Sequence record: DRR378314_201
DNA: 44,407 nt
Direction: 5' to 3' (one strand)
This document shows, in pieces, positions 2,780 to 17,128 of the stretch. How positions within the stretch are numbered: position 1 is the first letter of the stretch; each line of letters opens with the position of its first letter. Under the pieces are notes generated by a model. The model had not been told where the DNA came from and made no database searches. It saw nothing but the letters and a program-made list of their open reading frames with translations. The position numbers and the translations under genes were made by a program.

Positions 2780-3949
2780 CTATCCCAGTGCTTGTTCAAT
2801 ATCCGCAATGATATCATCTATATGCTCCAAGCCTACCGAAACCCGTACCATACCATCCGTGATTCCGGACGCCATTCTTTCTTCCACGGACAATTTACTA
2901 TGCGTGGTAGACGCAGGGTGTGTGACTATACTTCTTGAGTCCCCTAAATTAGCGGACAATGACAACATTTTTATAGCATTGAAGAATTTTTGTCCGGCTT
3001 CAACCCCTCCCTTTACTTCAAAAGCTACAACGCAGCCCCCTGCCTTCATCTGTTTCTTGGCCACTTCATATTTGGGATGTGATTTTAAAAAGGGATATTT
3101 TACCCAATTCACCTTGGGGTGACCTTCCAAGAATTCGGCCAGCCTCAGTGCATTGTCACAATGTTTATCTACGCGCAATGCCAAAGTCTCCAAGCTTTTG
3201 GATAGCACCCAGGCATTAAACGGAGATAAAGAAGGACCAGTGATCCTGGAAAAACGATACACTTTATCTATCAAAGCTTTGTTACCCACTGTAATACCGG
3301 CCAAAACCCTTCCTTGACCATCCATTAATTTTGTTCCAGAATGGATGACTAAATCGGCCCCATACTTAATAGGTTGCTGTAAATAGGGCGAAGCAAAACA
3401 ATTATCTATGATATAGATCAAATTGTGTTTTTTGGCAAACTTGCCCAATTCCTCCAGGTCCAAAACATCCACTCCAGGATTGGTTGGAGTTTCCGCATAG
3501 ATAATTTTAGTTTTAGGAGTGACCAATTCCTCCAATTTATCCAACTCATCTATCTTGAAGTAGCTGGTTGAAACATTCCATTTTGGAAAAAATTGAGTAA
3601 ACAGACTATGGGTAGACCCAAATATACTTCTAGAAGAAATGATGTGATCCCCACTGTCCAACAGAGCAGCAAAAGTGGAAAACACCGCCGCCATACCCGA
3701 TGCAAAGGCAAAACCATCCTCGGCCCCTTCCATCTTGCAAACCTTTTCTATAAACTCGGAAGAATTGGGGTTGCTATATCTTGAATAAATATTGCGTTCC
3801 TTTTCCTCCGCGAAGGAAGCCCTCATATCTTCCGCATCCTCGAAGATAAAACTAGAGGTTAAATACATAGGTGTGGAATGCTCCAAAAATTGGGTACGCT
3901 CCGTTTGGGTGCGTATAGCTTCCGTTTCAAATTTAAAATTCTTCTTCAT
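2780..3949 (-). CDS. metZ: O-acylhomoserine sulfhydrylase, MetZ-like (trans-sulfuration PLP enzyme)
   Basis: YSRYSNP, FASGMAA, HSGTKLMDGQGR (PLP lysine, MetZ-type DGQGR), NLGD and HPASTTH. Confidence 0.8.
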   Translation of the reverse strand: MKKNFKFETEAIRTQTERTQFLEHSTPMYLTSSFIFEDAEDMRASFAEEKERNIYSRYSNPNSSEFIEKVCKMEGAEDGFAFASGMAAVFSTFAALLDSGDHIISSRSIFGSTHSLFTQFFPKWNVSTSYFKIDELDKLEELVTPKTKIIYAETPTNPGVDVLDLEELGKFAKKHNLIYIIDNCFASPYLQQPIKYGADLVIHSGTKLMDGQGRVLAGITVGNKALIDKVYRFSRITGPSLSPFNAWVLSKSLETLALRVDKHCDNALRLAEFLEGHPKVNWVKYPFLKSHPKYEVAKKQMKAGGCVVAFEVKGGVEAGQKFFNAIKMLSLSANLGDSRSIVTHPASTTHSKLSVEERMASGITDGMVRVSVGLEHIDDIIADIEQALG

Positions 3950-4022
3950 TATTTCTTATCTATCTAATTCTTTTATCTGCCATTGTCAATCATAACATTA
4001 GGCCTCGGCACACTTCTTATCG

Positions 4023-4160
4023 CTCTACTTTATCTCCGAATCCCAAAGGTGGCTAAGTGGAGTAGAAACCATACCCAACATTCTCCTTTTCAAATTTATC
4101 CGATTTCGACTACGCTCAATCTCCGGTATTCCTTGGTGGCTGAGCGGAGCCGAAGCCACA
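4023..4160. repeat. left REP-like array: two tandem units of about 87 bp, each an inverted pair of hairpin motifs
   Basis: Intact GATTTCGACTACGCTCAATC (4102-4121) and GGTGGCTGAGCGGAGCCGAAGCCAC (4135-4159); degenerate copy GGTGGCTAAGTGGAGTAGAAACCA (4048-4071, 19/24 match). Confidence 0.85.
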
Positions 4161-4166
4161 ATTCAC

Positions 4167-4490
4167 TTACGACTTGTTCTTCTCTTCAATATAATACTTA
4201 AAGTGGGTTTCATTTTTACATTCGGCAAGGCCATTTAATTTAGCCAAATCCCCGCTTATCAACACCTCTTTTTTGTCACGACTCCAACCTTGGATTTGCT
4301 TTTCACGATAAAATGCTTTATCAATCCTATCATATTCCTCTACGTAAACCAACTTAACAGGAAGTCTCTTCTTAGTATGGTTAGCACCTTTCCCTGTATT
4401 GTGTTCCTTCAACCTTTTGTCCAAATCTACCGTACTACCACAATAATAACTCCCATCTGAGCATTCCAATATGTACAGGAAACCTCTCAC
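4167..4490 (-). CDS. stand-alone GIY-YIG nuclease (UPF0213/YhbQ-like)
   Basis: FLYILECSDGSYYCGST (GIY..YIG), RLKEH and the AFYREKQI helix with the catalytic Glu; GTG start. Confidence 0.9.
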   Translation of the reverse strand: MRGFLYILECSDGSYYCGSTVDLDKRLKEHNTGKGANHTKKRLPVKLVYVEEYDRIDKAFYREKQIQGWSRDKKEVLISGDLAKLNGLAECKNETHFKYYIEEKNKS

Positions 4491-4532
4491 ACTTTATATA
4501 TAATTAAAACTGTTTTATCTCCAAAACGCATA

Positions 4533-4686
4533 ATCTCTACCTCTCAATCTAGGACATTTCCCCGGTGGCTGAGCCTGGCTGTCGGCAGACAGGCGGAGCC
4601 GAAGCCACATTCAAATTCTTTCCCTTTCAATTCTAACCGATTTCGACTACGCTCAATCTACAGCATTCCTTGGTGGCTGAGCCACA
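4533..4686. repeat. right REP-like array, a direct repeat of the left array
   Basis: 4637-4682 matches 4100-4145 at 43/46 positions; the copy at 4564-4608 has a 20-bp insertion and the copy at 4672-4685 has an 11-bp deletion. Confidence 0.85.
4574..4593. mobile_element. 20-bp imperfect palindrome inserted into a REP-like motif
   Basis: CCTGGCTGTCGGCAGACAGG; removing it restores GGTGGCTGAGCGGAGCCGAAGCCAC exactly as seen at 4135-4159. Confidence 0.65.
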
Positions 4687-4690
4687 AAAC

Positions 4691-7600
4691 TTATCCTTTT
4701 TCCGCAATACGCAATATATCCCCAAAAACACCTCTGGCAGTTACCGCAGCTCCAGCACCTGCGCCTTGTATAACCAATGGATGCTGCCCATAAGACTCCG
4801 TATATATTTCAATGATGGAATCGGACCCCTTAATCTGTCCGAGCGCGCTTTCTTTGGGAACCGAAATCAACTTTACTTCCAATTTCCCTTTTTCCTTCTG
4901 TAGGTCACCGGATAGATCCCCTACATAACGCAGAACATGACCTGGTTTTTGTGAATTCTTTATCTTGCTAAACTTTTCATCCAAGATATCCAATCGCTCC
5001 AAAAAGCCCTTTACATCACCATCCTGCAAAGATTCCGGGATTAAATTTTCAATGAGAATGTCCGAAAACTCATTGCTAAGATCCAGCTCCCTGGCCAAAA
5101 TCAATAATTTCCTGCCCACATCATTGCCGGAAAGGTCTTCGCGTGGATCCGGTTCTGTATACCCCAAGTCCATGGCTTCTTTCAAAATTTCGGAGAACAA
5201 GGCATCCTTTTCCGAAAAAGTGTTGAAGATATAGCTTAAGGATCCAGAGAACACCCCTTTTATCCTTGTAATATTTTCCCCTGAAAGATGTAACAATTTA
5301 ATAGTGTCTATCAACGGCAATCCCGCACCTACATTGGTTTCATATAAATATTGCTTTTGATGCTTGGCGAGTTCTTCCCTAAGCAGCTGATAATAATCAA
5401 AGCGCAAGGTATTGGCAATCTTATTGGACGACACCAAATCGAAACCATTGTCCACAAAATCAAAATAAGAGGCCACAAATTCTTCATTGGCAGTATTGTC
5501 TACCGCAATAAGGTTCTCCAAATGATTGTCCTTGGCATATTTAAATATATCGTCTAACTCGTAAGGTACTGCCTTTGTTTCCATGGAGCTTTTCCAATTT
5601 TTGGAAATGCCGTTTTTATTCAAAAGCACCTTTTTAGAATTGGCCACTGCAAAAACATTGATATGGATGCCCTTTCTTTTTTCGATGGTTTTGTTCGATT
5701 TAAGAATTTGATCAATGAGGGTCCCCCCCACATTTCCATGACCAAAAATGGCCAAATTTACTTTTTTGCTTATGCCAAATATCTGCCCGTGTACTACATT
5801 TAGTGCCTTGTGCAAATCTGATTTCTTTACCACCAGACTCACATTTTTTCCCGAAACGGTATTGTTGAACAACAAGGGAACCACTTGGTTTTTTATAAGC
5901 GCATTGAAAGGCTTGTGAAAAGTACTCAAGTCCTGTCCTACGATAGAAATAACGGATACTTGATCTATAACGGTAATATTGTTTATATCCTGTAGCTTGA
6001 AATCGGTCTGAAATTCCTCTTCCAAAGAAGATTTGGCCAAGGCGGCATTTTTAGCGTCGACCACCAAACCAATACCTCTTTCCGATGACCCCTGGGAAAT
6101 AATACTAACACTTATGTTATTATTGCCCATTGTCCTAAAGATACGGGCATCTACCCCTACCTTGCCCAATAAACCGCGCCCTTCCAAATTGATCAAGGCC
6201 ATATTTTCAATAACGGACAAGGATTTTATACCTTCCTTACTGGTCTTGGCACTGATCAAGGTGCCCTCGTTATCGTTATTGAAGGTATTTAGGATCCGCA
6301 GTGGAATATTCTTTTCTATTAATGGAATAATAGTCTTCGCATGCAGAATGTTGGTTCCAAAATTTGCCAACTCATTGGCCTCACTATAGGAAAGTTCAGA
6401 AATTCTTTTGGCCTCTGTAACCAAATCAGGGTTGGCCGTAAATATACCATCTACATGGGTATAGTTCTGCAACTCTTCGGCATTGAGGTAATTGGCCAAT
6501 AAGGCGGCGGAATAATTACTTCCGTTTCTACCCAAGGTGGTTGTTTCGTTAAGTTCATTGGATGCAATAAAACCAGTAGTTACCACTACGGCATCCAGAT
6601 CCAATTTCCCAAACTCACTTTTTACATTTTCCTTGGACAGGGTCTCCAAGACTTTGGCATCCCCAAAGTTGGAATCTGTTTTAATGAGCTGTCTGGAATC
6701 AATAAACTTGGCATTGACACCTCTACCAATTAGTAATTTGGTCACCAATTTTGCCGAAAGCAACTCTCCAAAAGCTAAAACCTGATCTTTTATTTTAGGG
6801 CTATAATCTCCCAACAGTGCCACACCTTCAAATAACTTTACCAATCCCTTAAATTCCTCTGAGAGATTTACATTACCGTAAGCGTGTTGTTGATATTTTT
6901 CAAATTCTTCAAAATCCTTTACATAATCCAACCCCTTGGCCGCTTTGTCCAGCATCGCTTCCAATTCGTCCGTAGCCTTGTTCCTGGCAGAAACCACTAC
7001 GGCAATATTCTCACCATCTGTAACCTTGTCGGTTATTATCTGAAGTACAGTATCCAAGCCCTCTCCATTGGCCAATGACTTGCCACCAAATTTAAGGACC
7101 TTGACTTTTTTAGATCTTCCATTACGCTCAAAAACTCCCTTTAGCAACTCCTCCATTTGATTGAATTCGATCAAGAAGGCATCGTGCCCGTGCAGGGAAT
7201 GTATTTCCCCATAAGTGACATTGCTGTTGGCCTGGGCCAATTTCTTAAAGGTATCCTTGTTTTCCTGTGCAGTAAAAAAAAGGTCGGAATCTACTCCAAT
7301 GATATGGATATTGGTATCACTATTCTGAAGATTAATGAATGCCTCTTCCCCATTTCTATTGATATCAATAGTCTTCAGCAGTTGATTCATTAGTTTATAG
7401 GCCGACAATTGAAAACGTTCCTGTAATTTTTTACCATGGTGCGTTAGCCAACTCTCTACATTAAAGACTTTAAGTTCCTCGTTGGTGCTTCTTTTAAAAC
7501 GCTCCTTAAAGGATTCCGGCGTCCTATAGCATAGCATGGCATGCATACGCGCATCATGTACGGGCTGCTTGGAGTTCACCAAAAACTGCTCCTGAATCTG

Positions 7601-8077
7601 GCAATTGGCAATAAGCCAGTCCGTAGACTTCCAATCAGATGCTACCGGAATAAGATGCTCCGTTAAGTGAGGATCAATAGCCGCCATTTCCCACGCGATA
7701 CCTCCACCTAAAGAACCACCTATAAGGGCATATAACTTACTTATTTTTAAGGCCTCCAGTCCCAGAAGGAAAATCTTGGCTATGTCCTTGGCAACAAAAT
7801 CCTTATAATTATCTATTACAAAACCGTCGTACCCATTTCCTGGTATATTAAAGCAAAGAATGGTGTATTTCTTGGTATCTATACATTTGCCCTCTCCTAT
7901 CAAGGTTGTCCACCAGCCATTTTCGCCTGCCACATTGGAATTACCTGTAAGGGCATGGTTCACCATTATAATTGGTGCGGAATGCAAGGGTTGGCCAAAG
8001 AGCTCGTAGGACAAATTAATATCCAAGGTTTTGCCGCTATAGGTAACGTATTTATTTATTGAAAGATGATGTAACAT
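4691..8077 (-). CDS. thrA: trifunctional fusion: homoserine O-acyltransferase (MetX fold) + aspartate kinase + homoserine dehydrogenase
   Basis: N-terminal ~315 aa with HALTG, GGSLGG and HGHDAFL; then KFGGKSL, TTTLGRNGSNYSA, ACT region, GHGNVG, YETNVGAGLP, EPDPREDLSG and GAGAAVTA, all in one frame. Confidence 0.93.
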   Translation of the reverse strand: MLHHLSINKYVTYSGKTLDINLSYELFGQPLHSAPIIMVNHALTGNSNVAGENGWWTTLIGEGKCIDTKKYTILCFNIPGNGYDGFVIDNYKDFVAKDIAKIFLLGLEALKISKLYALIGGSLGGGIAWEMAAIDPHLTEHLIPVASDWKSTDWLIANCQIQEQFLVNSKQPVHDARMHAMLCYRTPESFKERFKRSTNEELKVFNVESWLTHHGKKLQERFQLSAYKLMNQLLKTIDINRNGEEAFINLQNSDTNIHIIGVDSDLFFTAQENKDTFKKLAQANSNVTYGEIHSLHGHDAFLIEFNQMEELLKGVFERNGRSKKVKVLKFGGKSLANGEGLDTVLQIITDKVTDGENIAVVVSARNKATDELEAMLDKAAKGLDYVKDFEEFEKYQQHAYGNVNLSEEFKGLVKLFEGVALLGDYSPKIKDQVLAFGELLSAKLVTKLLIGRGVNAKFIDSRQLIKTDSNFGDAKVLETLSKENVKSEFGKLDLDAVVVTTGFIASNELNETTTLGRNGSNYSAALLANYLNAEELQNYTHVDGIFTANPDLVTEAKRISELSYSEANELANFGTNILHAKTIIPLIEKNIPLRILNTFNNDNEGTLISAKTSKEGIKSLSVIENMALINLEGRGLLGKVGVDARIFRTMGNNNISVSIISQGSSERGIGLVVDAKNAALAKSSLEEEFQTDFKLQDINNITVIDQVSVISIVGQDLSTFHKPFNALIKNQVVPLLFNNTVSGKNVSLVVKKSDLHKALNVVHGQIFGISKKVNLAIFGHGNVGGTLIDQILKSNKTIEKRKGIHINVFAVANSKKVLLNKNGISKNWKSSMETKAVPYELDDIFKYAKDNHLENLIAVDNTANEEFVASYFDFVDNGFDLVSSNKIANTLRFDYYQLLREELAKHQKQYLYETNVGAGLPLIDTIKLLHLSGENITRIKGVFSGSLSYIFNTFSEKDALFSEILKEAMDLGYTEPDPREDLSGNDVGRKLLILARELDLSNEFSDILIENLIPESLQDGDVKGFLERLDILDEKFSKIKNSQKPGHVLRYVGDLSGDLQKEKGKLEVKLISVPKESALGQIKGSDSIIEIYTESYGQHPLVIQGAGAGAAVTARGVFGDILRIAEKG

Positions 8078-8219: not shown

Positions 8220-9512
8220 TTATGCTAAAACAGATTTATCAATGACTGAAAATGCCTGCACCAAATCCGCTTTTATATCTTCAATATCCTCCAACCCCAC
8301 ACATAAACGTATTAGATCTTTGGTTACTCCTGTAGCTTGTTGGGCTTCATCATCCAACTGTTGGTGCGTTGTACTGGCAGGGTGAATAATTAAGGACTTG
8401 GTATCCCCAATATTTGCCAATAGGGAAAATAGCTTGGTTTCATCTACCACCTTTTTGGCCGAATCGTATCCACCCTTAACTCCGAAGGTCACTATTCCAC
8501 TTTGTCCTTTTGGAAGGTATTTTTTGGCCAAGGAATAATACGGACTGGTTGAAAGGCCTGGATAGTTTACCCATGCCACTTCTTTTCTATCCTGTAACCA
8601 TTTAGCCAATTCCAAAGCATTTTCACTGTGTTTCTTGATACGAAGTTCCAAGGTTTCCAAACCTTGAATAATTTGAAAGGCATTAAATGGGCTCAAGGCA
8701 GCACCAAGATCCCTTAAACCTTCAATTCTTACTTTTGCAATAAAGGCTGCAGCACCCAAGACATCGTGATAAACCAAACCGTGGTATCCTGGGGATGGCT
8801 CCGTAAACTCAGGGAATTTACCACTGCTCCAATCGAAAGTACCTGCATCTACAATGACACCCCCCATAGAAGTTCCATTACCATTGATATATTTTGTAAG
8901 TGAATGTATTACAATATTTGCCCCGTGTTCAATTGGCTTTATCAAAGCACTTGTAGCTACCGTGTTATCCACAATAAATGGTATTTTGGCTTTTTTGGCC
9001 ACTTCTGATATTGCCTTCAAATCCAGCACGTCCAATTTTGGATTCCCAAGGGATTCCACAAAAATAGCTCTTGTATTTTCCTGAATGGCATTGGCAAAGT
9101 TCTCCTCGTCCCCTGGCTCAACAAAGGTGGTTGTGATACCCAATCTAGGTAAAGTCACCGCCAAAAGATTATAGGTACCTCCATAAAGACTGCTGGAAGC
9201 CACAATATGATCCCCGGTTTTAAGCAAAACCAATAGAGCGGTAGAAATAGCTGCCGTACCAGATGCCGTTACCACACTGGCCAGTCCACCTTCCAAAGCC
9301 GCCAAACGCTGCTCTAAAATGTCATTGGTAGGGTTGTTTAGCCTGGTGTAAATAAAGCCAGGTTCCGATAAGTTAAAAAGATTGGCCGCATGGTCCGTAT
9401 TATTAAACACATAGGCGGTATTCTGATAAATAGGCACTGCCCTGGTGCCAGCTGTTAATTTTGTGTCATGTCCTGCATGCAAAGCGTTTGTTGAAAATTT
9501 TTGAGTACTCAT
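8220..9512 (-). CDS. metY: O-acetylhomoserine aminocarboxypropyltransferase (sulfhydrylase)
   Basis: AVPIYQ, IYTRLNNPT, HSLTKY, F(T)EPSPGYHGL insertion, LANIGDTKSLIIHPASTTHQQL. Confidence 0.92.
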   Translation of the reverse strand: MSTQKFSTNALHAGHDTKLTAGTRAVPIYQNTAYVFNNTDHAANLFNLSEPGFIYTRLNNPTNDILEQRLAALEGGLASVVTASGTAAISTALLVLLKTGDHIVASSSLYGGTYNLLAVTLPRLGITTTFVEPGDEENFANAIQENTRAIFVESLGNPKLDVLDLKAISEVAKKAKIPFIVDNTVATSALIKPIEHGANIVIHSLTKYINGNGTSMGGVIVDAGTFDWSSGKFPEFTEPSPGYHGLVYHDVLGAAAFIAKVRIEGLRDLGAALSPFNAFQIIQGLETLELRIKKHSENALELAKWLQDRKEVAWVNYPGLSTSPYYSLAKKYLPKGQSGIVTFGVKGGYDSAKKVVDETKLFSLLANIGDTKSLIIHPASTTHQQLDDEAQQATGVTKDLIRLCVGLEDIEDIKADLVQAFSVIDKSVLA

Positions 9513-9635: not shown

Positions 9636-9776
9636 TGTTATCTGCCATGGATACTGTAAAACAAGCCATAATAATTTGGCCCAGTATTTAGGTAGAATTT
9701 AGCACCTTCTTTAATAAATGATCAAAGGGTTGCTAAGGCTTCAAAGGGTCTATTCCCTCCACCTTTCTTGATAACA
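9636..9776 (-). promoter_or_regulatory. SAM-I (S-box) riboswitch upstream of metY
   Basis: Minus strand TGTTATCAAGAAAGGTGGAGGGAATAGACCC..GAAGCCTTAGCAACC..GGTGCTAAATTC..GATAACA; 7-bp P1 and the conserved S-box core. Confidence 0.92.
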
Positions 9777-9805
9777 ATTCAATAAGTGTTTGAACTTTAG
9801 GTTTG

Positions 9806-9852: not shown

Positions 9853-11109
9853 TTATAAATCGAAAGCTTCTTTCACCAAATCCACAGCATCCAATTTCTC
9901 CCAGGTAAATAATTCCACTTCCTTTTCTACACGTCCGTTGTAAGGCGATTCAAACACCTTGATCATTTTTTTAGGGTCTTTGCCCATATGACCGTAGGCG
10001 GCTGTTTCCAAATAAATGGGATTTCTTAATTTTAGCCTTTCTTCTATGGAAAAAGGACGCATATCGAACAATTGGGCAACTTTCTTGGCAATCTCGCCAT
10101 CACTCAAAGCTACTTTAGCGGAACCATAGGTATCCACAAAAATAGAAGTGGGCTCCACAACCCCAATAGCGTAACTAACCTGAACCAAAATTTCATCGGC
10201 AACCCCTGCAGCAACAAGATTTTTGGCTGCATGCCTAGCGGCATATGCGGCACTGCGATCTACCTTACTGGGATCTTTTCCACTAAACGCACCCCCACCA
10301 TGGGCTCCCTTGCCTCCATAAGTATCCACAATAATCTTTCTTCCAGTTAGACCGGTATCACCGTGGGGACCTCCAATTACAAATTTCCCCGTAGGATTAA
10401 TATGGTACTTTATAGTATCGTTAAAAAGCTTTTGTATTGCCGCTGGCAATTGCTCCTTTACCCTTGGAATAAGAATGGAAATAATATCCTTCTTAATTTT
10501 GGCCAACATTACATCATCATCCTTATCAAACTCGTCATGTTGGGTAGATACAACAATAGTATCTATACGTTGCGGAACATTATCATCGGAATATTCGATG
10601 GTCACTTGTGCCTTGGCATCTGGCCTTAGATAAGAAATTGCATCTCCTACCCTTCTCAAATCTGCCAAAACCTGCAATATTTTATGGGAAATATCCAGGG
10701 CCAGGGGCATATAGTTTTCCGTTTCCTTAGTAGCATAGCCGAACATCATACCTTGATCTCCAGCCCCCTGATCTTCTTTTGCTCCACGATCCACTCCTTG
10801 GTTGATCTCTTTGGACTGCTCGTGTATCAAGGAAATAACACCACAGGAATCTCCGCTAAACTTATAATCACCATTGGTGTAGCCAATTTTATTGATAACA
10901 TCCCTCGCAATTTGCTGAACATCAAGATAGGTGTGGCTTTTAACCTCCCCGGCCAATACCACCTGACCAGTAGTGACCAAAGTTTCGCAAGCCACCTTAC
11001 TTTCCGAGTCAAAAGCCAAAAAATGATCCAATAACGCATCACTAATTTGATCCGCTATTTTATCTGGATGCCCTTCACTAACCGATTCCGAAGTAAATAA
11101 ATATGCCAT
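9853..11109 (-). CDS. metK: S-adenosylmethionine synthetase
   Basis: [33 protein letters not shown] and [16 protein letters not shown]. Confidence 0.98.
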
Positions 11110-11201
11110 AAATCCTTTCTAAATAAAAATTAATAGGGATTTGACGAAGCACACTAGAGAAGAGTGGATGTTACAGCTCCAATGGAACAGAACAACTTAA
11201 A

Positions 11202-11270
11202 CTGCTTTAGCATTTAGTTATGCCGAAACTAATTCAGCACATGAGGTTGCAATCAGTCAAATCCTTCCTC
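11202..11270 (-). promoter_or_regulatory. SAM-II-like (long-loop) riboswitch upstream of metK
   Basis: Minus strand GAGG-AAGGATTTGA-CTG-ATTGCAA-CCTC-[hairpin TGTGCTGAA..TTCGGCATA]-AAATGCTAAAG-CAG follows the SAM-II pseudoknot order (GAUUU loop, UUGCA, GCUAAA). Confidence 0.75.
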
Positions 11271-11286
11271 GATATTTTTTCGCGTA

Positions 11287-11354: not shown

Positions 11355-14042
11355 CTATAAATCGTATTTTACGGTAAACAGGATATACCGGGGTTGAATG
11401 AAATAAGAGGAGGTCGTAAAAAATAATTCGTTGGTGCTATCCCTATTCAAAGTATCCGTTCCGAGTAGGTTGGTACCCTTTATTCCAAATTCCCAATGAC
11501 TATCCCTTTTCTGATAACTGAGGTTACCTTCCAAAAAACTATAAGTATTGTCTATGGTATTTTCTTTGTCCATATACTTATAGTAATCGTAGTCCAAGGT
11601 AAAAATGAAACTTTTTAGAAAGTTGGCGTCAAATTTGGCATAGGGTTGGTTGGTATAAAAGGTAGTATTCCTACCCCCATTATCGTAGTTATTTACGGTA
11701 TATCTATAACCCACCTCCAAATTAGGGGCATTCCTAAAATTAGTGGCCAAAGAGGAATTATAGTTTTGTGTAAAGGATTCCGATCTCCTTGGCTGAAGGT
11801 CAATAATATTATTGGTAGCAGACCATGAAACATTTGCTCCTACAGAGGCCTTTATTTTTCCAAATGTCCGTTGATACCTACCGTTGCCACTTAAGGATTC
11901 GTCTTCCAAATTGGAGTTTATAGTAGTACCAATCCTGTTTATTCCAATAATTTCAGAAGCACTTTTAAGTGCGTCTATTCGTTTCGTATAGGTAATATTC
12001 CCAAAAATATTGGTGAAATTGAACATATTAAAACTGAAGAAGTTCAATGATAGGTTGTGGTTCAAAGCACTCTCCAAGTCCCTGTTTCCGGAATAAACGG
12101 AGTTGTAGTTATTGAGCACGTAGGCCTCCGCAAAGCTATTGACATCTGTAAAAGATCTTGATACCCTATAATTAAATCGAATGTTTTCGGATTTTTTAAG
12201 TTGAACATTTATGTACAAATCCGGCAGCAAAGCGGTTAAATTATCCTCAACAGTAGTTCCCAGCTGTTCGTTTTTAGTACCGTATTGATGCAAGGTAACA
12301 CCAGGATTAAAGGTGAATATCCCGGCTATTACCTTATAATGAAAACCTAAATACAAATCCGAAACATTATAGGTTACATCGTTGTTGAAGGCGCTGTCGG
12401 TAAAAGTCAATGGGGCCCCACCATCCAATATTTGAAAAATGCCGGAATTAAAATTCTGATGGCTCTGTGTAGTACCCAGTGTAAAATTTAAATTACTCTT
12501 TTGGCCCGTTACCCAATAATAATCCAGCTTCGCGTCCACTTTATTGGTTATGGTATTATTGCCCTGATTAAGGTTATAGATACTCTGATCTTCATCTACC
12601 GGGAAAATATCGGTAAAGGCAAAATTATCCCTGATAGCATTGTAAAATGGATCTTCATCCTGATAAATATGTTGGGCTTCAAAGGCAAAAATATTTTTTG
12701 AATTTAAAGTAGTATAATAAATATTGGCATTTTGATTCACGGAAATAGGCTTTTGCCTCTTAGTTTCCGTAATTTCATCAGTAATCGTGGAAATTGATAT
12801 AACATTCTCAATTTCATCATCGTCAGATTGCTTCAAAAGTATGTCGTAATCAAATTGGAACCTGTCATTAGGTTTATACTTAGAACTAAATTTTGCCAAT
12901 CCCAAATGAGCGGTTTGATCTGTGGACGTGGTAGCATCCTCCGTTTCGTTGGAGGAAATATAAACCCTTCTCGTTTGGTCTTCCATTAAGGTCCCAGTAT
13001 AGGAATAAATACCAAATCCGCTCAAATCCCAATTTTCTTTGGGAGAATAACTAAAATTCACGGCAGCAAACTTGGTATCTATATTTTTTGCCCTATTGTT
13101 CTGAAGGCTGGAAAGTCCCAAGCCATCCCCTCCTATATCTATGGAGCTTCCACTTGAGCTGCCCAGATTTCTAAATCCTCCGGTAAAACTCTGGTAATCC
13201 CTTCTATTAAAGGGTGCTTCCCCAATATTATTGAGATCGGTAATAATATTAATACTATAATCAGGGCTATAAAAAAAGAGTTTTGGATGTGCCAGATAAC
13301 TATCATTAGTACCATAACCCGCCGTTATTTCCCCAAACCAAAATCTCTTTTTACCCTGCTTCAACTTAATATTGAGCGCTACATTATCAGTATCATTGGT
13401 CAGGCCCTGCATTTGGGTTACTTCGTTAAAATTTCTCAACACCTCTATCTTGTCCAATGCATTCGCTGGAATATTATCTGCCGCCAACTTTGAGTCCCCG
13501 TCGAAAAAATCCTTCCCCTCTACCATTACCTTGGTCACTTTTTTTCCTTCCACCTCTATTTGCCCATCATCATTTATTTCTACACCGGGCAAATTGGCCA
13601 GCACATCCTTAAGTTTCTTTTCCGTACCTGTAACAAAGGAATCCGTATCATAGACTATGGTATCACCTTTCACCGAAATAGGCATCTCATAGGTAACTTC
13701 AACCTCGTCCAATTGATTGGTTTGTTCGTAAAGAACAATGTCCTTATTTACATCGGCTGCAGGTGCCGTAAAAGAGAATTCTTCCGTTTTAAAACCCAAA
13801 TAGCTTACACGGACGTTAAAATTTGACCCCGCTTTTAAATTTAGTTTATAGAGTCCACTATGGTTAGTAATACCGTAAGATTCCAAGGCCTTGGTTTCTG
13901 TATTTATGGCAATAACATTTGCCATATCTACCCCCACTCCGGTGGAATCCTTAACAATTCCCGTAAGGGTAATTTCTTGACCCAAAGCTGCAGAAAAAGC
14001 AAAAACAGCTACTAGTACAGAATAAAAACATTTATTGTACAT
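11355..14042 (-). CDS. outer-membrane beta-barrel protein with N-terminal carboxypeptidase-regulatory-like domain (TonB-dependent-receptor-like)
   Basis: Signal peptide, ITLTGIVKDS..VSYLGFK domain, GDTIVY..LPGVEI..DFF plug-like region, alternating beta-strands and C-terminal QPRYILFTVKYDL. Confidence 0.8.
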   Translation of the reverse strand: MYNKCFYSVLVAVFAFSAALGQEITLTGIVKDSTGVGVDMANVIAINTETKALESYGITNHSGLYKLNLKAGSNFNVRVSYLGFKTEEFSFTAPAADVNKDIVLYEQTNQLDEVEVTYEMPISVKGDTIVYDTDSFVTGTEKKLKDVLANLPGVEINDDGQIEVEGKKVTKVMVEGKDFFDGDSKLAADNIPANALDKIEVLRNFNEVTQMQGLTNDTDNVALNIKLKQGKKRFWFGEITAGYGTNDSYLAHPKLFFYSPDYSINIITDLNNIGEAPFNRRDYQSFTGGFRNLGSSSGSSIDIGGDGLGLSSLQNNRAKNIDTKFAAVNFSYSPKENWDLSGFGIYSYTGTLMEDQTRRVYISSNETEDATTSTDQTAHLGLAKFSSKYKPNDRFQFDYDILLKQSDDDEIENVISISTITDEITETKRQKPISVNQNANIYYTTLNSKNIFAFEAQHIYQDEDPFYNAIRDNFAFTDIFPVDEDQSIYNLNQGNNTITNKVDAKLDYYWVTGQKSNLNFTLGTTQSHQNFNSGIFQILDGGAPLTFTDSAFNNDVTYNVSDLYLGFHYKVIAGIFTFNPGVTLHQYGTKNEQLGTTVEDNLTALLPDLYINVQLKKSENIRFNYRVSRSFTDVNSFAEAYVLNNYNSVYSGNRDLESALNHNLSLNFFSFNMFNFTNIFGNITYTKRIDALKSASEIIGINRIGTTINSNLEDESLSGNGRYQRTFGKIKASVGANVSWSATNNIIDLQPRRSESFTQNYNSSLATNFRNAPNLEVGYRYTVNNYDNGGRNTTFYTNQPYAKFDANFLKSFIFTLDYDYYKYMDKENTIDNTYSFLEGNLSYQKRDSHWEFGIKGTNLLGTDTLNRDSTNELFFTTSSYFIQPRYILFTVKYDL

Positions 14043-14094
14043 CTATAAAAAATTTAAAATATCTAATGGTTGATAATAAAAAAAAAGGACAGAA

Positions 14095-14943
14095 TTAAGG
14101 CCTGCCACCGCCTCCACCTCTATTTCCTCCACCTCCGCCACCACGACGGAAATTCTCCCTCATTTCGGCCATCTTGTCCTTGGATATTTTATCATATTCC
14201 TCCTGGGTAACGGTCTTACCTTTACTTGGAGCCTTTATCTCCTTCTTCTCTGTTGGGTTGAGCACTAATTTTGTACATAGTATAACCGTAACATCATCCT
14301 TGACCTCCAAAATTAGGCCTGGTAGTCCCCAATATTCTCCTGGACCTTGATTTACAGGAACATTCGGGGCATACCAAGCGGTTATCTCAATTTCCTTTTC
14401 TGTAAATTCCTCCTCCTTATTTTCATCGTTGTCCCCTCCCCTACGAAAAATAGCCCTCATATTGGGCCTCTTAATGGTTCTGGTTGCTGTAGCCTTAAAG
14501 GCAGTATAATTACCGATCTGTTTTGTTTCTCCACCGAGTTTCCATTCCAAGATTGGCAATTTATCATCCACCAAAAAAATCTTTCCAAAAAGTTCATTTT
14601 TAACCAAATATCTACCATCCCTCACATCTTTATAATAATCACCTCCGGCTCCGCTCATCATTCCAAATCGCCCACCACCCCTTTGGTTGCCAGGCTGCTC
14701 CAACCTTTCCTCCTCCTTATAAATAGATGTGGATTTGTCAAAGGTTAAAATATAGGTCCGCTCATTGGCTTCCTTCATCCTTTGAATTATTTCCTTCTTT
14801 CTATCCTCCGGTATTTGTCTTCCGCCAAAATCCATATTAACAGTAGTCTTACTAAAATAGGTAGCCTCTCCCTGAAAATCCTGGGCATAAATTCCGAAAT
14901 GGGATGCAAACAGCATCAAAAAAAAGAAATAGAAATTTTTCAT
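14095..14943 (-). CDS. GLPGLI family secreted protein
   Basis: Signal peptide, AWYAPNVPVNQGPGEYWGLPGLILEV motif and a Gly/Arg-rich tail. Confidence 0.92.
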   Translation of the reverse strand: MKNFYFFFLMLFASHFGIYAQDFQGEATYFSKTTVNMDFGGRQIPEDRKKEIIQRMKEANERTYILTFDKSTSIYKEEERLEQPGNQRGGGRFGMMSGAGGDYYKDVRDGRYLVKNELFGKIFLVDDKLPILEWKLGGETKQIGNYTAFKATATRTIKRPNMRAIFRRGGDNDENKEEEFTEKEIEITAWYAPNVPVNQGPGEYWGLPGLILEVKDDVTVILCTKLVLNPTEKKEIKAPSKGKTVTQEEYDKISKDKMAEMRENFRRGGGGGGNRGGGGGRP

Positions 14944-15140
14944 TATTTTACATTTTATATCAAGCTTAAGACTACAACAATTTGATTTGGTTTAATCCAA
15001 AATCAATAAAAAATACAAATATCCTGTCCTGTAAATTTTTTATCGGATTATCATCCAAAGATTTTAACATGCACCCGATATCTTGTATATTGTACCTCTT
15101 TATTACGAGTGCAAAAAACACTAACCATAATTACAAACCT

Positions 15141-15755
15141 ATGCATATCGCCGTTGCAGGAAATATTGGGGCTGGCAAAACAACCTTGACAAGATTACTA
15201 TCCAAACACTACCAATGGGAGGCCCAATTTGAAGATGTGGTTGACAATCCCTATTTGGACGACTTTTACAATCAAATGGAAAGATGGAGCTTTAATCTCC
15301 AGATATACTTTTTAAATAATAGGTACAGACAAATTTTACAGATAAGGAAGGGCGGCAAAGACACTATTCAAGACCGTACCATCTACGAGGATGCCCATAT
15401 TTTTGCCCCCAACCTCCATGCCATGGGTTTAATGACCAATAGGGATTTTAGCAATTACACCAGTCTATTCGAATTAATGGAAACGTTGGTACAACCTCCA
15501 GATCTATTAATTTATTTAAGAAGTTCCATCCCAAACTTGGTGAATCAAATCCACAAGCGAGGACGCGAATATGAAAACAGCATTTCTATCGACTATCTAA
15601 GCCGATTGAACGAACGTTATGAAGCATGGGCGCAAAGCTATGAAAAGGGCAACCTCTTGGTCATTGATGTAGACAAATTAAATTTTGTGGACGAACCGGA
15701 AGATTTGGGCTTGGTCATCAATAAAATTGATGCCGAGATCAATGGCCTTTTTTAA
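15141..15755 (+). CDS. deoxynucleoside kinase
   Basis: GNIGAGKTT P-loop, DRTIYED, PDLLIYL and KRGREYE lid; start set at ATG 15141. Confidence 0.92.
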   Translation: MHIAVAGNIGAGKTTLTRLLSKHYQWEAQFEDVVDNPYLDDFYNQMERWSFNLQIYFLNNRYRQILQIRKGGKDTIQDRTIYEDAHIFAPNLHAMGLMTNRDFSNYTSLFELMETLVQPPDLLIYLRSSIPNLVNQIHKRGREYENSISIDYLSRLNERYEAWAQSYEKGNLLVIDVDKLNFVDEPEDLGLVINKIDAEINGLF

Positions 15756-15862
15756 ACCACGAACCTAAGAAACCTTATAGGCAATAGAAAAATTACACCT
15801 GCAATAGTTCTTATCTTATTTCATCCAAAGGCCTTTGATCACAATTTTTTAAACCCACTTGA

Positions 15863-17128
15863 TCATAAATGCCAGGATGCAGGCCATAGCCATATTAAAA
15901 ATATGCCTACAATTATAGCTATTCCAAAGGAAAGCGCAATCCATTTCGCCAACTGTTTTGTCCCCAAAATTCCTGCCATAACACCCTTAAAAACCAAATT
16001 TGACAAGCTGGCCAATAGAATAAGTTTCCAACCCGTAGACACGTTTAAGGCATCGATTTTAATTAGCTGTGACAAAGATAGGGTTATGGCATCCACGTCT
16101 GTTAGTCCGCTTATTATAGCCACAATATATAGGGCGTTATCTCCAAACTCCTCATTGGCAAATGCTACCGCCAACAATATGGCCCCGTAAAGCAACCCAA
16201 ATACCAACGCACTTTTAAATTCGGCAGGGTTTTCCGGTTCAGGCATTGTATCATCCTTGGAATCCTTGTTTATACTATAGAACATACCCAGACAAATAAG
16301 TGCCATGACTACAAATTCTACCATTAATGGCAGTAGAATTACAGGTAATTTTTCTGGTATTACCACCCCTATCTCTACCATTACCCTGGCCAGGGATATG
16401 GCAGAAGCAACGGTGATCACAAAGGCCGCCATTTTGCTTATAGATGCCGTATCTACAGTTTTACGCGCATAACTAACGGTGGTTGCCGTACTACTGATCA
16501 ATCCCCCCAAAACACCATTGGAAATAATCCCCAACTTTTTCCCGACAAACTTATAAATAAAATATCCCAAGACACTCAGCCCTACTATAAGCGTAATCAT
16601 TAACCAAATGTTTTGAGGATTAAGCACGTTGTAAGGCCCATAGGTTTTATTGGGCAGAATGGGAAGCACTACCAAGGAAATTCCTGCAAAGGTCATAATA
16701 GCGGAAAGATCCTTTTCCTGTAGTCTATTTATAAAACCATGAAGCCTTTCCTTCACATAAAGAAGTACAGACATGGAGACCCCAATTACAATGCCCAACA
16801 CCCTATCCCCCATTACCAAATAAGCACCAATAGCAAACATCAATAAGGCGGCCACCTCCGTTGTCTGCCCAACATCCGGATTAGTAAATACCTTTATCTT
16901 TATAAAATTGGCGGCTACTAGAAGGGAGGTTAGGGCAACACCGAGAACAGGCAAAATAAAAGGGTTTTGATAGTCCCTACTTAAAAACCCCGCCAAAACT
17001 CCTAAAATTGCAATCAGGGTAAAGGTCCTTACCCCCGCCAACTCACTATTTGCCTTTTCCCGCTGAAGACCAACCAAAAGGCCCAATCCGAAAGCAATGC
17101 CGAGTGTAGTTAAATCGTGATAATCCAT
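15863..17128 (-). CDS. MgtC/SapB family membrane protein with DUF4010 domain
   Basis: GLLVGLQRE, AGVRTF, GQTTE, GGLISSTATT and SGLTDVDAI; many transmembrane segments. Confidence 0.85.
   Translation of the reverse strand: MDYHDLTTLGIAFGLGLLVGLQREKANSELAGVRTFTLIAILGVLAGFLSRDYQNPFILPVLGVALTSLLVAANFIKIKVFTNPDVGQTTEVAALLMFAIGAYLVMGDRVLGIVIGVSMSVLLYVKERLHGFINRLQEKDLSAIMTFAGISLVVLPILPNKTYGPYNVLNPQNIWLMITLIVGLSVLGYFIYKFVGKKLGIISNGVLGGLISSTATTVSYARKTVDTASISKMAAFVITVASAISLARVMVEIGVVIPEKLPVILLPLMVEFVVMALICLGMFYSINKDSKDDTMPEPENPAEFKSALVFGLLYGAILLAVAFANEEFGDNALYIVAIISGLTDVDAITLSLSQLIKIDALNVSTGWKLILLASLSNLVFKGVMAGILGTKQLAKWIALSFGIAIIVGIFLIWLWPASWHL

Follow-up and report, generated by a model that had tools for sequence, protein, structure and literature searches.

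A GIY-YIG gene bracketed by hairpins in a methionine operon

The 44,407-bp stretch DRR378314_201 (the window) contains a small GIY-YIG nuclease gene, encoding the protein P0001, that is flanked on both sides by arrays of a short hairpin repeat (Table 1). A first-pass annotation, made from the letters of the sequence, had placed a stand-alone GIY-YIG gene of 107 amino acids (aa) between a thrA fusion gene and metZ, and the analysis bore this out. Residues 3 to 74 of the product matched the Pfam family GIY-YIG (PF01541) with an E value of 5.1e-19 and 68.8 bits (cutoff, 22.6), and this was the sole Pfam domain found in the protein. Residues Y6, Y16, R26, H30, and E63 were invariant across 33 homologues. 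We count R26 and H30 among the catalytic residues, assuming for them the usual roles of the GIY-YIG arginine and histidine. An AlphaFold2 (AF2) model of P0001 showed one compact domain with a mean pLDDT of 83.8. The tail was modeled with low confidence from about residue 95 (mean pLDDT of 62 for residues 91 to 100), values below 50 being confined to residues 103 to 107. The PADLOC and PHROGs libraries gave no match.

Behind an S-adenosylmethionine (SAM) riboswitch, a metY-like gene, the thrA fusion gene, the GIY-YIG gene, and a metZ-like gene follow one another on the same strand. The GIY-YIG gene therefore lies inside a riboswitch-controlled operon. The 29 further open reading frames (ORFs) of the window in the Pfam scan were ordinary chromosomal genes, and no HUH/Y1 transposase was found among the 33 window ORFs. 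The locus has the layout of repetitive extragenic palindromic (REP) doublets around the gene for a RAYT (the tyrosine transposase that accompanies REPs), as had been proposed, with no HUH enzyme among these ORFs.

Table 1. Coordinates of the nuclease gene, the hairpins, and neighboring features in the window (CM, covariance model R1)
Feature	Position	Strand	Evidence or detail
GIY-YIG nuclease gene (protein P0001), SsnA-like	4167..4490	-	107 aa, GTG start, single domain
Decayed unit 1; GGTGGCTAAGTGGAGTAGAAACCA at 4048-4071, 79% identical to motif B, with a decayed A part before it	4010..4071	+	Repeat search
Opposite-orientation hairpin (motif A); stem GAT/ATC; plus-strand core TTCGACTACGCTCA at 4105-4118	4096..4127	-	CM 35 bits, E 8.4e-08
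Intact hairpin (motif B); stem GTGGC 4136-4140/GCCAC 4155-4159; loop TGAGCGGAGCCGAA at 4141-4154	4132..4163	+	CM 44.4 bits, E 1.7e-10
Decayed hairpin closest to gene start (A part of unit 3)	4530..4549	-	Sequence; no CM match
Split-loop hairpin; GGTGGC TGAGC (20-nt palindromic insertion, 4575-4594) GGAGCCGAA GCCAC	4564..4608	+	34-nt loop, perfect 5-bp closure
Intact hairpin, second motif A copy; plus-strand core at 4642-4655	4633..4664	-	CM 32 bits, E 6.3e-07
Truncated hairpin GTGGC-TGA-GCCAC at 4673-4685, loop mostly deleted (B part of unit 4)	4669..4689	+	CM 15.2 bits, E 0.045
Upstream neighbor, 1128-aa abhydrolase/AA_kinase (aspartokinase)/ACT/homoserine dehydrogenase fusion (thrA fusion)	4691..8077	-	Pfam
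Downstream neighbor, Cys_Met_Meta_PP pyridoxal phosphate enzyme (metZ-like)	2780..3949	-	Pfam E 1.3e-133
SAM (S-box) riboswitch	9669..9777	-	Rfam RF00162, 67.5 bits (gathering score, 44.4)

The first-pass annotation had described two tandem units of about 87 to 88 bp on each side of the gene, each pairing a motif A with a diverged inverse, motif B. Motif A had exact matches at two positions, 4102 and 4639; motif B had one, at 4138. That there are no other copies in the window was confirmed, since no further match to either motif was found with three or fewer mismatches in 44,407 bp (0 expected from 100 shuffles). A scan of the window with covariance model R1, built from 132 hairpins and run with filters off, returned at an E value below 0.05 just 4132-4163 (plus), 4096-4127 (minus), 4633-4664 (minus), and 4669-4689 (plus), all of them in the flanks of the gene. 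The sequence GGTGGCTGAGC occurred three times (4135, 4564, and 4672) against 0.39 expected. The direct repeats at 4048 and 4135 are spaced by 87 nt and those at 4564 and 4672 by 108 nt, a distance that comes to 88 nt without a 20-nt insertion, and a 62-nt stretch at 4084-4145 was repeated across the gene at 4621-4682 with 89% identity. There are four repeat units of about 88 bp, roughly two per gene side, and of these just the one at 4084-4160 is intact. Motifs A and B do lie in opposite orientations, as described, but they are copies of a single motif, and it is each small hairpin that forms the structural unit.

The intact hairpin at 4132-4163 is the first copy past the stop codon of the nuclease gene and, together with 4096-4127, makes up one inverted doublet. 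Unit 1 gave no covariance-model match at an E value of 10 or less. The copy nearest the gene start is decayed in the window, and the hairpin at the orthologous position is intact in the relatives L002 and L003. The split-loop hairpin returned only covariance-model fragments (E values of 0.99 and 3.7), and its DNA fold had an energy of -13.8 kcal/mol (z = -2.43). The truncated hairpin adjoins the stop codon of the upstream thrA fusion gene. The insertion in the split-loop copy is palindromic with a CTGTC..GACAG core; both this insertion and the loop loss in the truncated copy start directly after TGAGC. The hairpins orthologous to these two damaged copies are intact in three other Arenibacter species.

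Rfam gave no relevant match within 3800-4900 at an E value of 10 or less or in the window at the gathering score. Flavo-1 (RF01705), which had been suggested as a family to check, was without a match by both measures and was rejected as the identity of the repeat. A Flavo-1 RNA was seen in locus L071 alone among nine Rfam-scanned loci plus the window. It lies at 9204-9299 on the minus strand (58.4 bits; gathering score, 42), and its structure is unrelated to that of the hairpin, of which an array of 20 copies is found some 250 bp away.

The hairpin and its tie to the gene in relatives

More than 4,500 relatives were returned by one search, and loci in species genomes numbered more than 600. 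With the alignment of the 33 homologues as the query, the best 80 were obtained of at least 596 confirmed loci in species-representative genomes. Association was counted in 81 sources (1.32 Mb), with core copies allowed at most one mismatch and copies called near when they lay within 700 bp of the gene. Near copies numbered 344 in 136,443 bp (2.52/kb), and copies elsewhere numbered 63 in 1,182,025 bp (0.053/kb), an approximately 47-fold difference in density. A near copy was present in 77 of the 81 sources. Control tiles of 1.7 kb were positive in 36 of 629 cases (5.7%), compared with 95% of the gene tiles. The enrichment beside GIY-YIG homologues that the first-pass annotation had proposed to look for is thus present, and the hairpin repeat is specifically linked to this GIY-YIG gene family. 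Nothing was observed of what that annotation had named as refuting its idea.

In these relatives, motifs A and B are the two orientations of one motif, a 14-nt core loop, TGAGCGNAGYCGAA, closed by a stem of 3 to 6 bp. The sequence of the stem varies from place to place and yet stays complementary, with 23 distinct 3-bp closures. No source contributed more than two of the 132 hairpins. Among these, the three innermost pairs of the stem were about 95% paired and each had undergone 41 to 58 double changes. The covariation score was 0.614, compared with 0.205 after shuffling (0 of 500 shuffles reached 0.614), and every slid control scored far lower. The G immediately 5' of the stem was conserved in at least 90% of the hairpins, whether paired or unpaired. 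A long stem between A and B, though predicted by minimum free energy, was rejected: its arms differ in their closing stems, its variable positions are mismatched, and the covariation fits the small hairpins.

A 13-nt loop variant, TGAG-N5-CGAA, was found in 16 cases. Examples of this class, such as TGAGGCTCTCGAA, lie at L056 10278-10460, at L066 9635-9880, at L064 5071, 13272, and 17852, and at L079 5527, and the 13-nt and 14-nt classes sometimes share a locus. On one strand only, a U-A pair, tandem G.A/A.G pairs, and a G-C pair could carry the helix on into the TGAG and CGAA boxes. Loops that were long or split but had a perfect 5-bp closure numbered 97, against 3 in the control. Tandem arrays of partial, loop-truncated hairpins that end in one complete copy were seen at L023 2955-3040, L078 1324-1410, L026 6649-6940, and L065 3495-3570, and at 3557 in L021 one hairpin is nested within the loop of another.

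The copies around the gene alternate in orientation and follow a fixed layout, [< >] gene [< >]. Those that have TGAGCG on the gene strand are most frequent at -50 to -25 from the start (30 copies). Oppositely oriented copies are most frequent at +300 to +325, which is the gene end (40 copies), and often overlap the last codons. Partner copies sit outside these two gene-adjacent hairpins. Because the 3' copy often overlaps the coding end, many database ORFs read through the hairpins. The resulting products carry tails such as FDYAQ, WLRLRSATEN repeats, or WWLSGAEA or are false fusions of 416 to 436 aa with the downstream gene. Such ORFs were seen in L009, L011, L013, L022, L024, L061, and L068 from about position 10001 and include the proteins P0037, P0101, P0109, P0119, and P0120. 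Some protein ends in databases are probably mis-annotated through such read-through, and the overlap accounts for a recurrent artefact of over-long ORF annotation.

The fixed positions of the hairpins relative to start and stop codons, the frequent overlap of the 3' copy with the coding end, and the placement of the gene on the same strand as its neighbors in operons (met, 3-hydroxy-3-methylglutaryl coenzyme A [HMG-CoA] reductase, and type I restriction-modification [R-M]) would also suit hairpins that act in RNA. They would then set the processing, stability, or translation of the transcript of the SAM-riboswitch operon, and the protein would perhaps bind its own mRNA. The orientation counts speak against this, since the two orientations are about equally common (224 versus 183) and half the copies would therefore present the complementary loop in RNA. 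There is also no tolerance for G.U pairs on the gene strand (G.T 23 versus A.C 27, and 11 versus 29), no T run follows the stems, and dispersed copies lie between convergent genes. In addition, SsnA, the Neisseria meningitidis nuclease discussed below, is reported not to bind RNA (PMC11893778). We therefore regard an RNA role as very unlikely.

Relation to Ssn nucleases and other GIY-YIG proteins

Single-stranded DNA (ssDNA) nucleases with flanking hairpins are described by Chenal et al. (2025; PMC11893778). These authors define Ssn as site-specific GIY-YIG ssDNA nucleases that are flanked by the hairpin repeats called NTS or SRM. SsnA of N. meningitidis is a single-domain GIY-YIG protein of 94 aa (CDD cd10448). 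Its binding to the NTS hairpin is confined to ssDNA and to one strand, the cut lies a few nucleotides upstream, and cutting is abolished in the Y6A, Y17A, and E64A mutants. Among Ssn homologues, 71% have at least one SRM nearby and 42% have SRMs on both sides, and 137 of the 169 genomes with more than 200 SRMs encode an Ssn homologue. The NTS-ssnA-NTS arrangement is likened there to IS200/IS605 and to REP/RAYT systems, spreading of the repeat by Ssn is offered as a hypothesis in the Discussion, and many different nuclease/repeat pairs are expected (PMC11893778). The GIY-YIG protein in PMC8565304 is unrelated.

That no mechanism had been established, as the first-pass annotation held, no longer applies, since the 2025 study reported the association together with the biochemistry and drew the REP/RAYT analogy (PMC11893778). 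The headline idea of a nuclease partnered with REP-like repeats, with no HUH enzyme, is right in kind and already known. It is not new, because the principle of a nuclease with flanking hairpins is already in print.

We compared P0001 with an SsnA-like ORF of gonococcus, which encodes 94 aa and sits among 16 dRS3/NTS palindrome sites. P0001 matched this ORF with an E value of 8e-10 (38 bits; 32% identity), and hhalign gave a probability of 96% for the family alignment against it. Residues Y6, Y16, and E63 of P0001 align with Y6, Y17, and E64 of SsnA, and the signature REKQ-x-x-W-x-R is common to SsnA and the P0001 clade. SsnA (94 aa) and P0001 (107 aa) are both single-domain GIY-YIG proteins whose size falls within the range of about 90 to 110 aa that marks the Ssn family, and both genes have inverted hairpins on either side. 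In the Ssn family the repeats are also dispersed in the genome; hairpins of the P0001 type were seen away from the gene at related loci and in a Sphingomonas genome but not in the other 43.7 kb of the window. At a canonical Ssn locus of Shinella, SRMs of the published pattern lie at 1333 (minus) and 1445 (plus), the gene lies at 1495-1779, and further SRMs lie at 1796 (minus) and 1905 (plus), which is the same [< >] gene [< >] layout as in the P0001 clade. In a 20-sequence tree, which is small, midpoint rooted, and marked by one long branch, the P0001 clade joined the canonical Ssn clade as its sister with 90/86 support. The P0001 clade comprised Bacteroidota, Sphingomonas parapaucimobilis, and a Methylobacterium, and YazA/YhbQ-like proteins, which lack repeats, stood apart from both clades. 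These comparisons point to a system of the Ssn type, and this is probably what the locus represents: a small single-domain GIY-YIG gene with arrays of the hairpin cognate to it on either side.

By analogy with SsnA, we infer that P0001 would bind and cut ssDNA specifically, on the recognized strand. The protein most likely recognizes the hairpin by its sequence and shape, on one strand and in ssDNA only, and would cut a few nucleotides from it. Because SsnA-like recognition is restricted to ssDNA, P0001 might act on repeat-carrying ssDNA intermediates in incoming, replicating, or repairing DNA.

Several observations weigh against the assignment to the Ssn type. P0001 is only 32% identical to SsnA and scores 38 bits against it. 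Its score with the uncharacterized UPF0213 structure 1zg2 is higher (63 bits), and SsnA hardly matches that structure (E = 0.1). The hairpin differs as well: it has a stem of 3 to 6 bp, a conserved 14-nt loop, and no CGTC-type tag, whereas the Ssn NTS is CGTCATTCCCGCGMAVGCGGGAATCYRG (PMC11893778). The published SRM pattern had 0 matches in the 81 sources (1.32 Mb), compared with 9 in a 2.6-kb gonococcal control. Intact units folded no better than shuffled sequences (z of -1.3 to +1.5), so that the case for a hairpin structure rests on covariation, because the folding energies are unremarkable, and no asymmetry between G.T and A.C mismatches pointed to one strand. Four of the 81 sources (L035, L056, L073, and L079) had no clear near copy, L056 and L079 having the 13-nt loop variant, and 11 of 12 more distant homologue loci did not carry this hairpin. 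Finally, the covariance model found no dispersed hairpin copy in the remaining 43.7 kb of the window, and no copies away from the gene were found at three other Arenibacter loci. The Arenibacter genome of the window may hold little target for the nuclease beyond its own flanks. As for the SRM pattern, its miss is a failure of the pattern and not of the principle, because the authors of the Ssn study expect many nuclease/repeat pairs.

The 29 genomes that define the SRM include no Bacteroidota, and the word is absent from the main text (PMC11893778). In the SRM enrichment table of that report, the 13 Arenibacter rows have 0.67- to 1.23-fold values, which is no enrichment, and there is likewise none in two Maribacter and two Winogradskyella rows (1.8- to 2.6-fold) or in S. 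parapaucimobilis (0.76-fold). Arenibacter is flagged there as having a cd10448 homologue, which may be the gene at the thrA/metZ site. The published pattern and tables thus miss the Flavobacteriaceae and S. parapaucimobilis branch, for which a homologue is listed and no repeat enrichment is given. What is added here is a cognate repeat for a large branch of small GIY-YIG proteins, with a defined motif, a covariance model, and the rule by which copies are oriented on the two sides of the gene. An uncharacterized enzyme clade thereby gains a concrete candidate substrate, and ssDNA tools possibly a new specificity.

In both sequence and fold, the best match to P0001 was UPF0213 (BH0048 1zg2, EF2693 1ywl, YazA, and YhbQ), whose structures took Foldseek ranks 1 and 2. 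The closest solved structure was that of BH0048 (1zg2; E = 2.1e-16, 63 bits), with which P0001 has the N-terminal half in common, including the G-KGA motif. The best Protein Data Bank matches after the two UPF0213 structures were Slx1 nucleases. The catalytic fold is common to P0001 and the Slx1/HIGLE enzymes (Foldseek 6seh, 7cq2, 4xlg, and 7wme; query-normalized TM-scores of 0.53 to 0.58). Unlike P0001, Slx1/HIGLE nucleases are multi-domain eukaryotic enzymes that act with partners on branched DNA, and we know of no repeat partnership for them.

With UPF0213 and Slx1 as the closest solved structures, P0001 might be taken for an ordinary housekeeping repair nuclease beside which a host REP family collects by chance. 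Classical UPF0213 members do occur in housekeeping operons without repeats, and, unlike in the P0001 clade, no hairpins were found at the classical loci examined (Bacillus subtilis yazA and Salinivibrio). Chance accumulation is highly improbable, however, given that the same 14-nt loop and layout recur in Bacteroidota and in an alphaproteobacterium and that the repeat was present in 5.7% of control tiles versus 95% of gene tiles.

A second reading, which we put forward only tentatively, is that the clade forms a UPF0213-like lineage of its own, sister to Ssn, with a structurally different recognition element made up of a short variable stem, a 14-nt (or 13-nt) loop, and invariant TGAG...CGAA boxes. 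If so, the partnership of nuclease and hairpin would reach further toward YazA/YhbQ than published. Thousands of Bacteroidota proteins would gain a testable substrate, and a new ssDNA-cutting specificity would be at hand. In that case, so nearly invariant a loop in both Bacteroidota and an alphaproteobacterium would suggest that gene and repeat had spread together horizontally as a cassette.

Inheritance, dispersal, and the REP/RAYT analogy

The thrA/metZ site with both neighbors was found in the window and at eight loci (three Arenibacter, two Maribacter, Flagellimonas, Muricauda, and one metagenome-assembled genome [MAG]). The short Maribacter contig L005 is a further case with thrA upstream only. 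Pairwise identities of the GIY-YIG protein and thrA were correlated with an r of 0.95, which 0 of 5000 Mantel permutations reached. The gene is vertically inherited at the thrA/metZ site across Arenibacter, Maribacter, Flagellimonas, and Muricauda. Array length differs among Arenibacter species, with 1 to 2 units upstream and 1.5 to 3 units downstream. On the Ssn-type reading, gene and repeats have long been established in the methionine operon of this lineage and are passed on vertically there, with an array size that shifts between species. At 11 other loci (Winogradskyella, Olleya, Bizionia, Urechidicola, Tenacibaculum, Polaribacter, and Lutibacter), the gene follows that of HMG-CoA reductase, and 61 distinct gene contexts were counted among the 81 sources. 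Because a shared thrA/metZ site coexists with 61 contexts, the gene combines long-term stability with many deep relocations.

A cassette lying between co-oriented genes in many operons might also be a free-standing homing-endonuclease gene, or an active selfish cassette, inserted into a pre-existing host repeat. GIY-YIG homing endonucleases (I-TevI and Seg) have the same type of catalytic domain as P0001 and can be free-standing between host genes, and P0001 did show a weak match to the group I intron endonuclease family TIGR01453 (E = 2.4e-4). That match, at 21.2 bits, is far under the cutoff of 56.05 and covers 35 residues (2 to 36). In contrast to homing endonucleases, P0001 has no DNA-binding domain beyond its 107-aa GIY-YIG core, co-diverges with its neighbors over several genera, and is not found in phages: plasmid and phage collections held no close relative, with all protein matches below 60% identity. 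No second homologue was found in any of the 81 sources by tblastn or with the family hidden Markov model. We consider a homing or selfish origin of this kind most improbable.

Because the sources hold no second homologue, the 63 distant hairpin copies are solo. Of these, 37 lie outside long ORFs, often as doublets. Distant copies matched the stem triplet of the gene-flanking hairpins at their own locus in 20 of 43 cases, compared with 7.3 expected (0 of 2000 permutations).

Among the 12 more distant homologue loci, the one with the same core and layout belongs to S. parapaucimobilis YK209, whose protein is 40.7% identical. Its doublet of about 100 bp was found in at least 175 places in nine records, a count that is too low, and within the collection matches were confined to this organism. 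These records hold one gene of this type. They contain no homologue of RayT, as judged by tblastn with Escherichia coli RayT (32 records of the plasmid collection matched, none from Sphingomonas). A 49-kb stretch holds 12 hairpins, of which 5 are placed around the gene; each of the remaining 7 is located between annotated coding sequences. The nine records (L095, NZ_CP155752.1 270000-319000, and eight sisters) are labeled as plasmids and carry rpsD, topA, glyA, hisG, nusB, and similar housekeeping genes; they look like chromosome pieces.

The locus resembles REP/RAYT systems in two respects. The nuclease gene is single copy, vertically inherited, at a fixed extragenic site, and absent from plasmids, as reported for RAYTs in a preprint (10.1101/2021.07.10.451892), and inverted hairpin doublets of about 100 bp flank the gene and lie dispersed in extragenic positions. 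The enzymes differ, P0001 being a GIY-YIG hydrolase and RAYT (TnpA-REP) a Y1 HUH transposase. The repeats differ too: GTAG/CGTC REPs have stems of 6 to 13 bp and mostly short loops (PMC3733652), whereas in the P0001 hairpin the conserved loop is long and the stem varies.

Spreading of the repeats by P0001 is a hypothesis. In its stronger form, the partnership would be replicative and of the REPIN/RAYT kind. The nuclease would mainly duplicate and disperse the doublets by nicking followed by repair or template switching, and the gene would be the domesticated remnant of a hairpin-bounded mobile cassette. This differs from the Ssn-type reading only in the purpose of cutting. It is consistent with the dispersed Sphingomonas doublets in a genome with a single gene, with genome-specific stem variants, with the variable array length among Arenibacter species, and with the 61 contexts among 81 loci. 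The excess of long or split loops (97 versus 3), including the loop-broken partial tandems and the nested hairpin, fits it as well. On the other side, no Arenibacter copies were seen away from the gene in the window or at three other loci, and replication slippage alone can yield tandem variation. To our knowledge, moreover, GIY-YIG enzymes hydrolyze DNA and form no covalent strand-transfer intermediate. Also in its favor, the vertical single-site pattern matches that reported for RAYTs in the preprint cited above, and the same idea is raised in the Discussion of the Ssn study (PMC11893778). We regard replicative dispersal as a possible but doubtful account, and the Ssn-type reading is retained.

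Homologues that are 62 to 73% identical to the protein of Arenibacter were found at L027, L039, L046, L048, L060, L063, L069, L070, L073, and L078, in most cases together with these hairpins. The MAGs of this group are labeled Gemmatimonas, Geobacter, Ignavibacteriales, Moraxellaceae, Halioglobus, Cloacimonadota, Hydrocarboniphaga, Sulfuricella, Dojkabacteria, and Electrothrix. Homologues occur on contigs with such labels owing either to horizontal transfer or to errors of binning.

Some Bacteroidia MAGs have the cassette inside a type I R-M operon, with hsdM on one side and hsdS on the other (L074 336-3470 and L016 10001-11716), and in L016 the ORF continues in frame through hairpin-derived codons into HsdS. 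In L032, a full-length ORF for a type I restriction R subunit (12999-16118; HSDR_N, SWI2_SNF2, T1R_D3-like, and EcoR124_C) contains four in-frame hairpin cores. In this respect the L032 ORF resembles the in-frame palindromic elements of Rickettsia. Elsewhere in the window, a SAM-II riboswitch at 11197-11276 on the minus strand precedes a SAM synthetase gene at 9853-11109.

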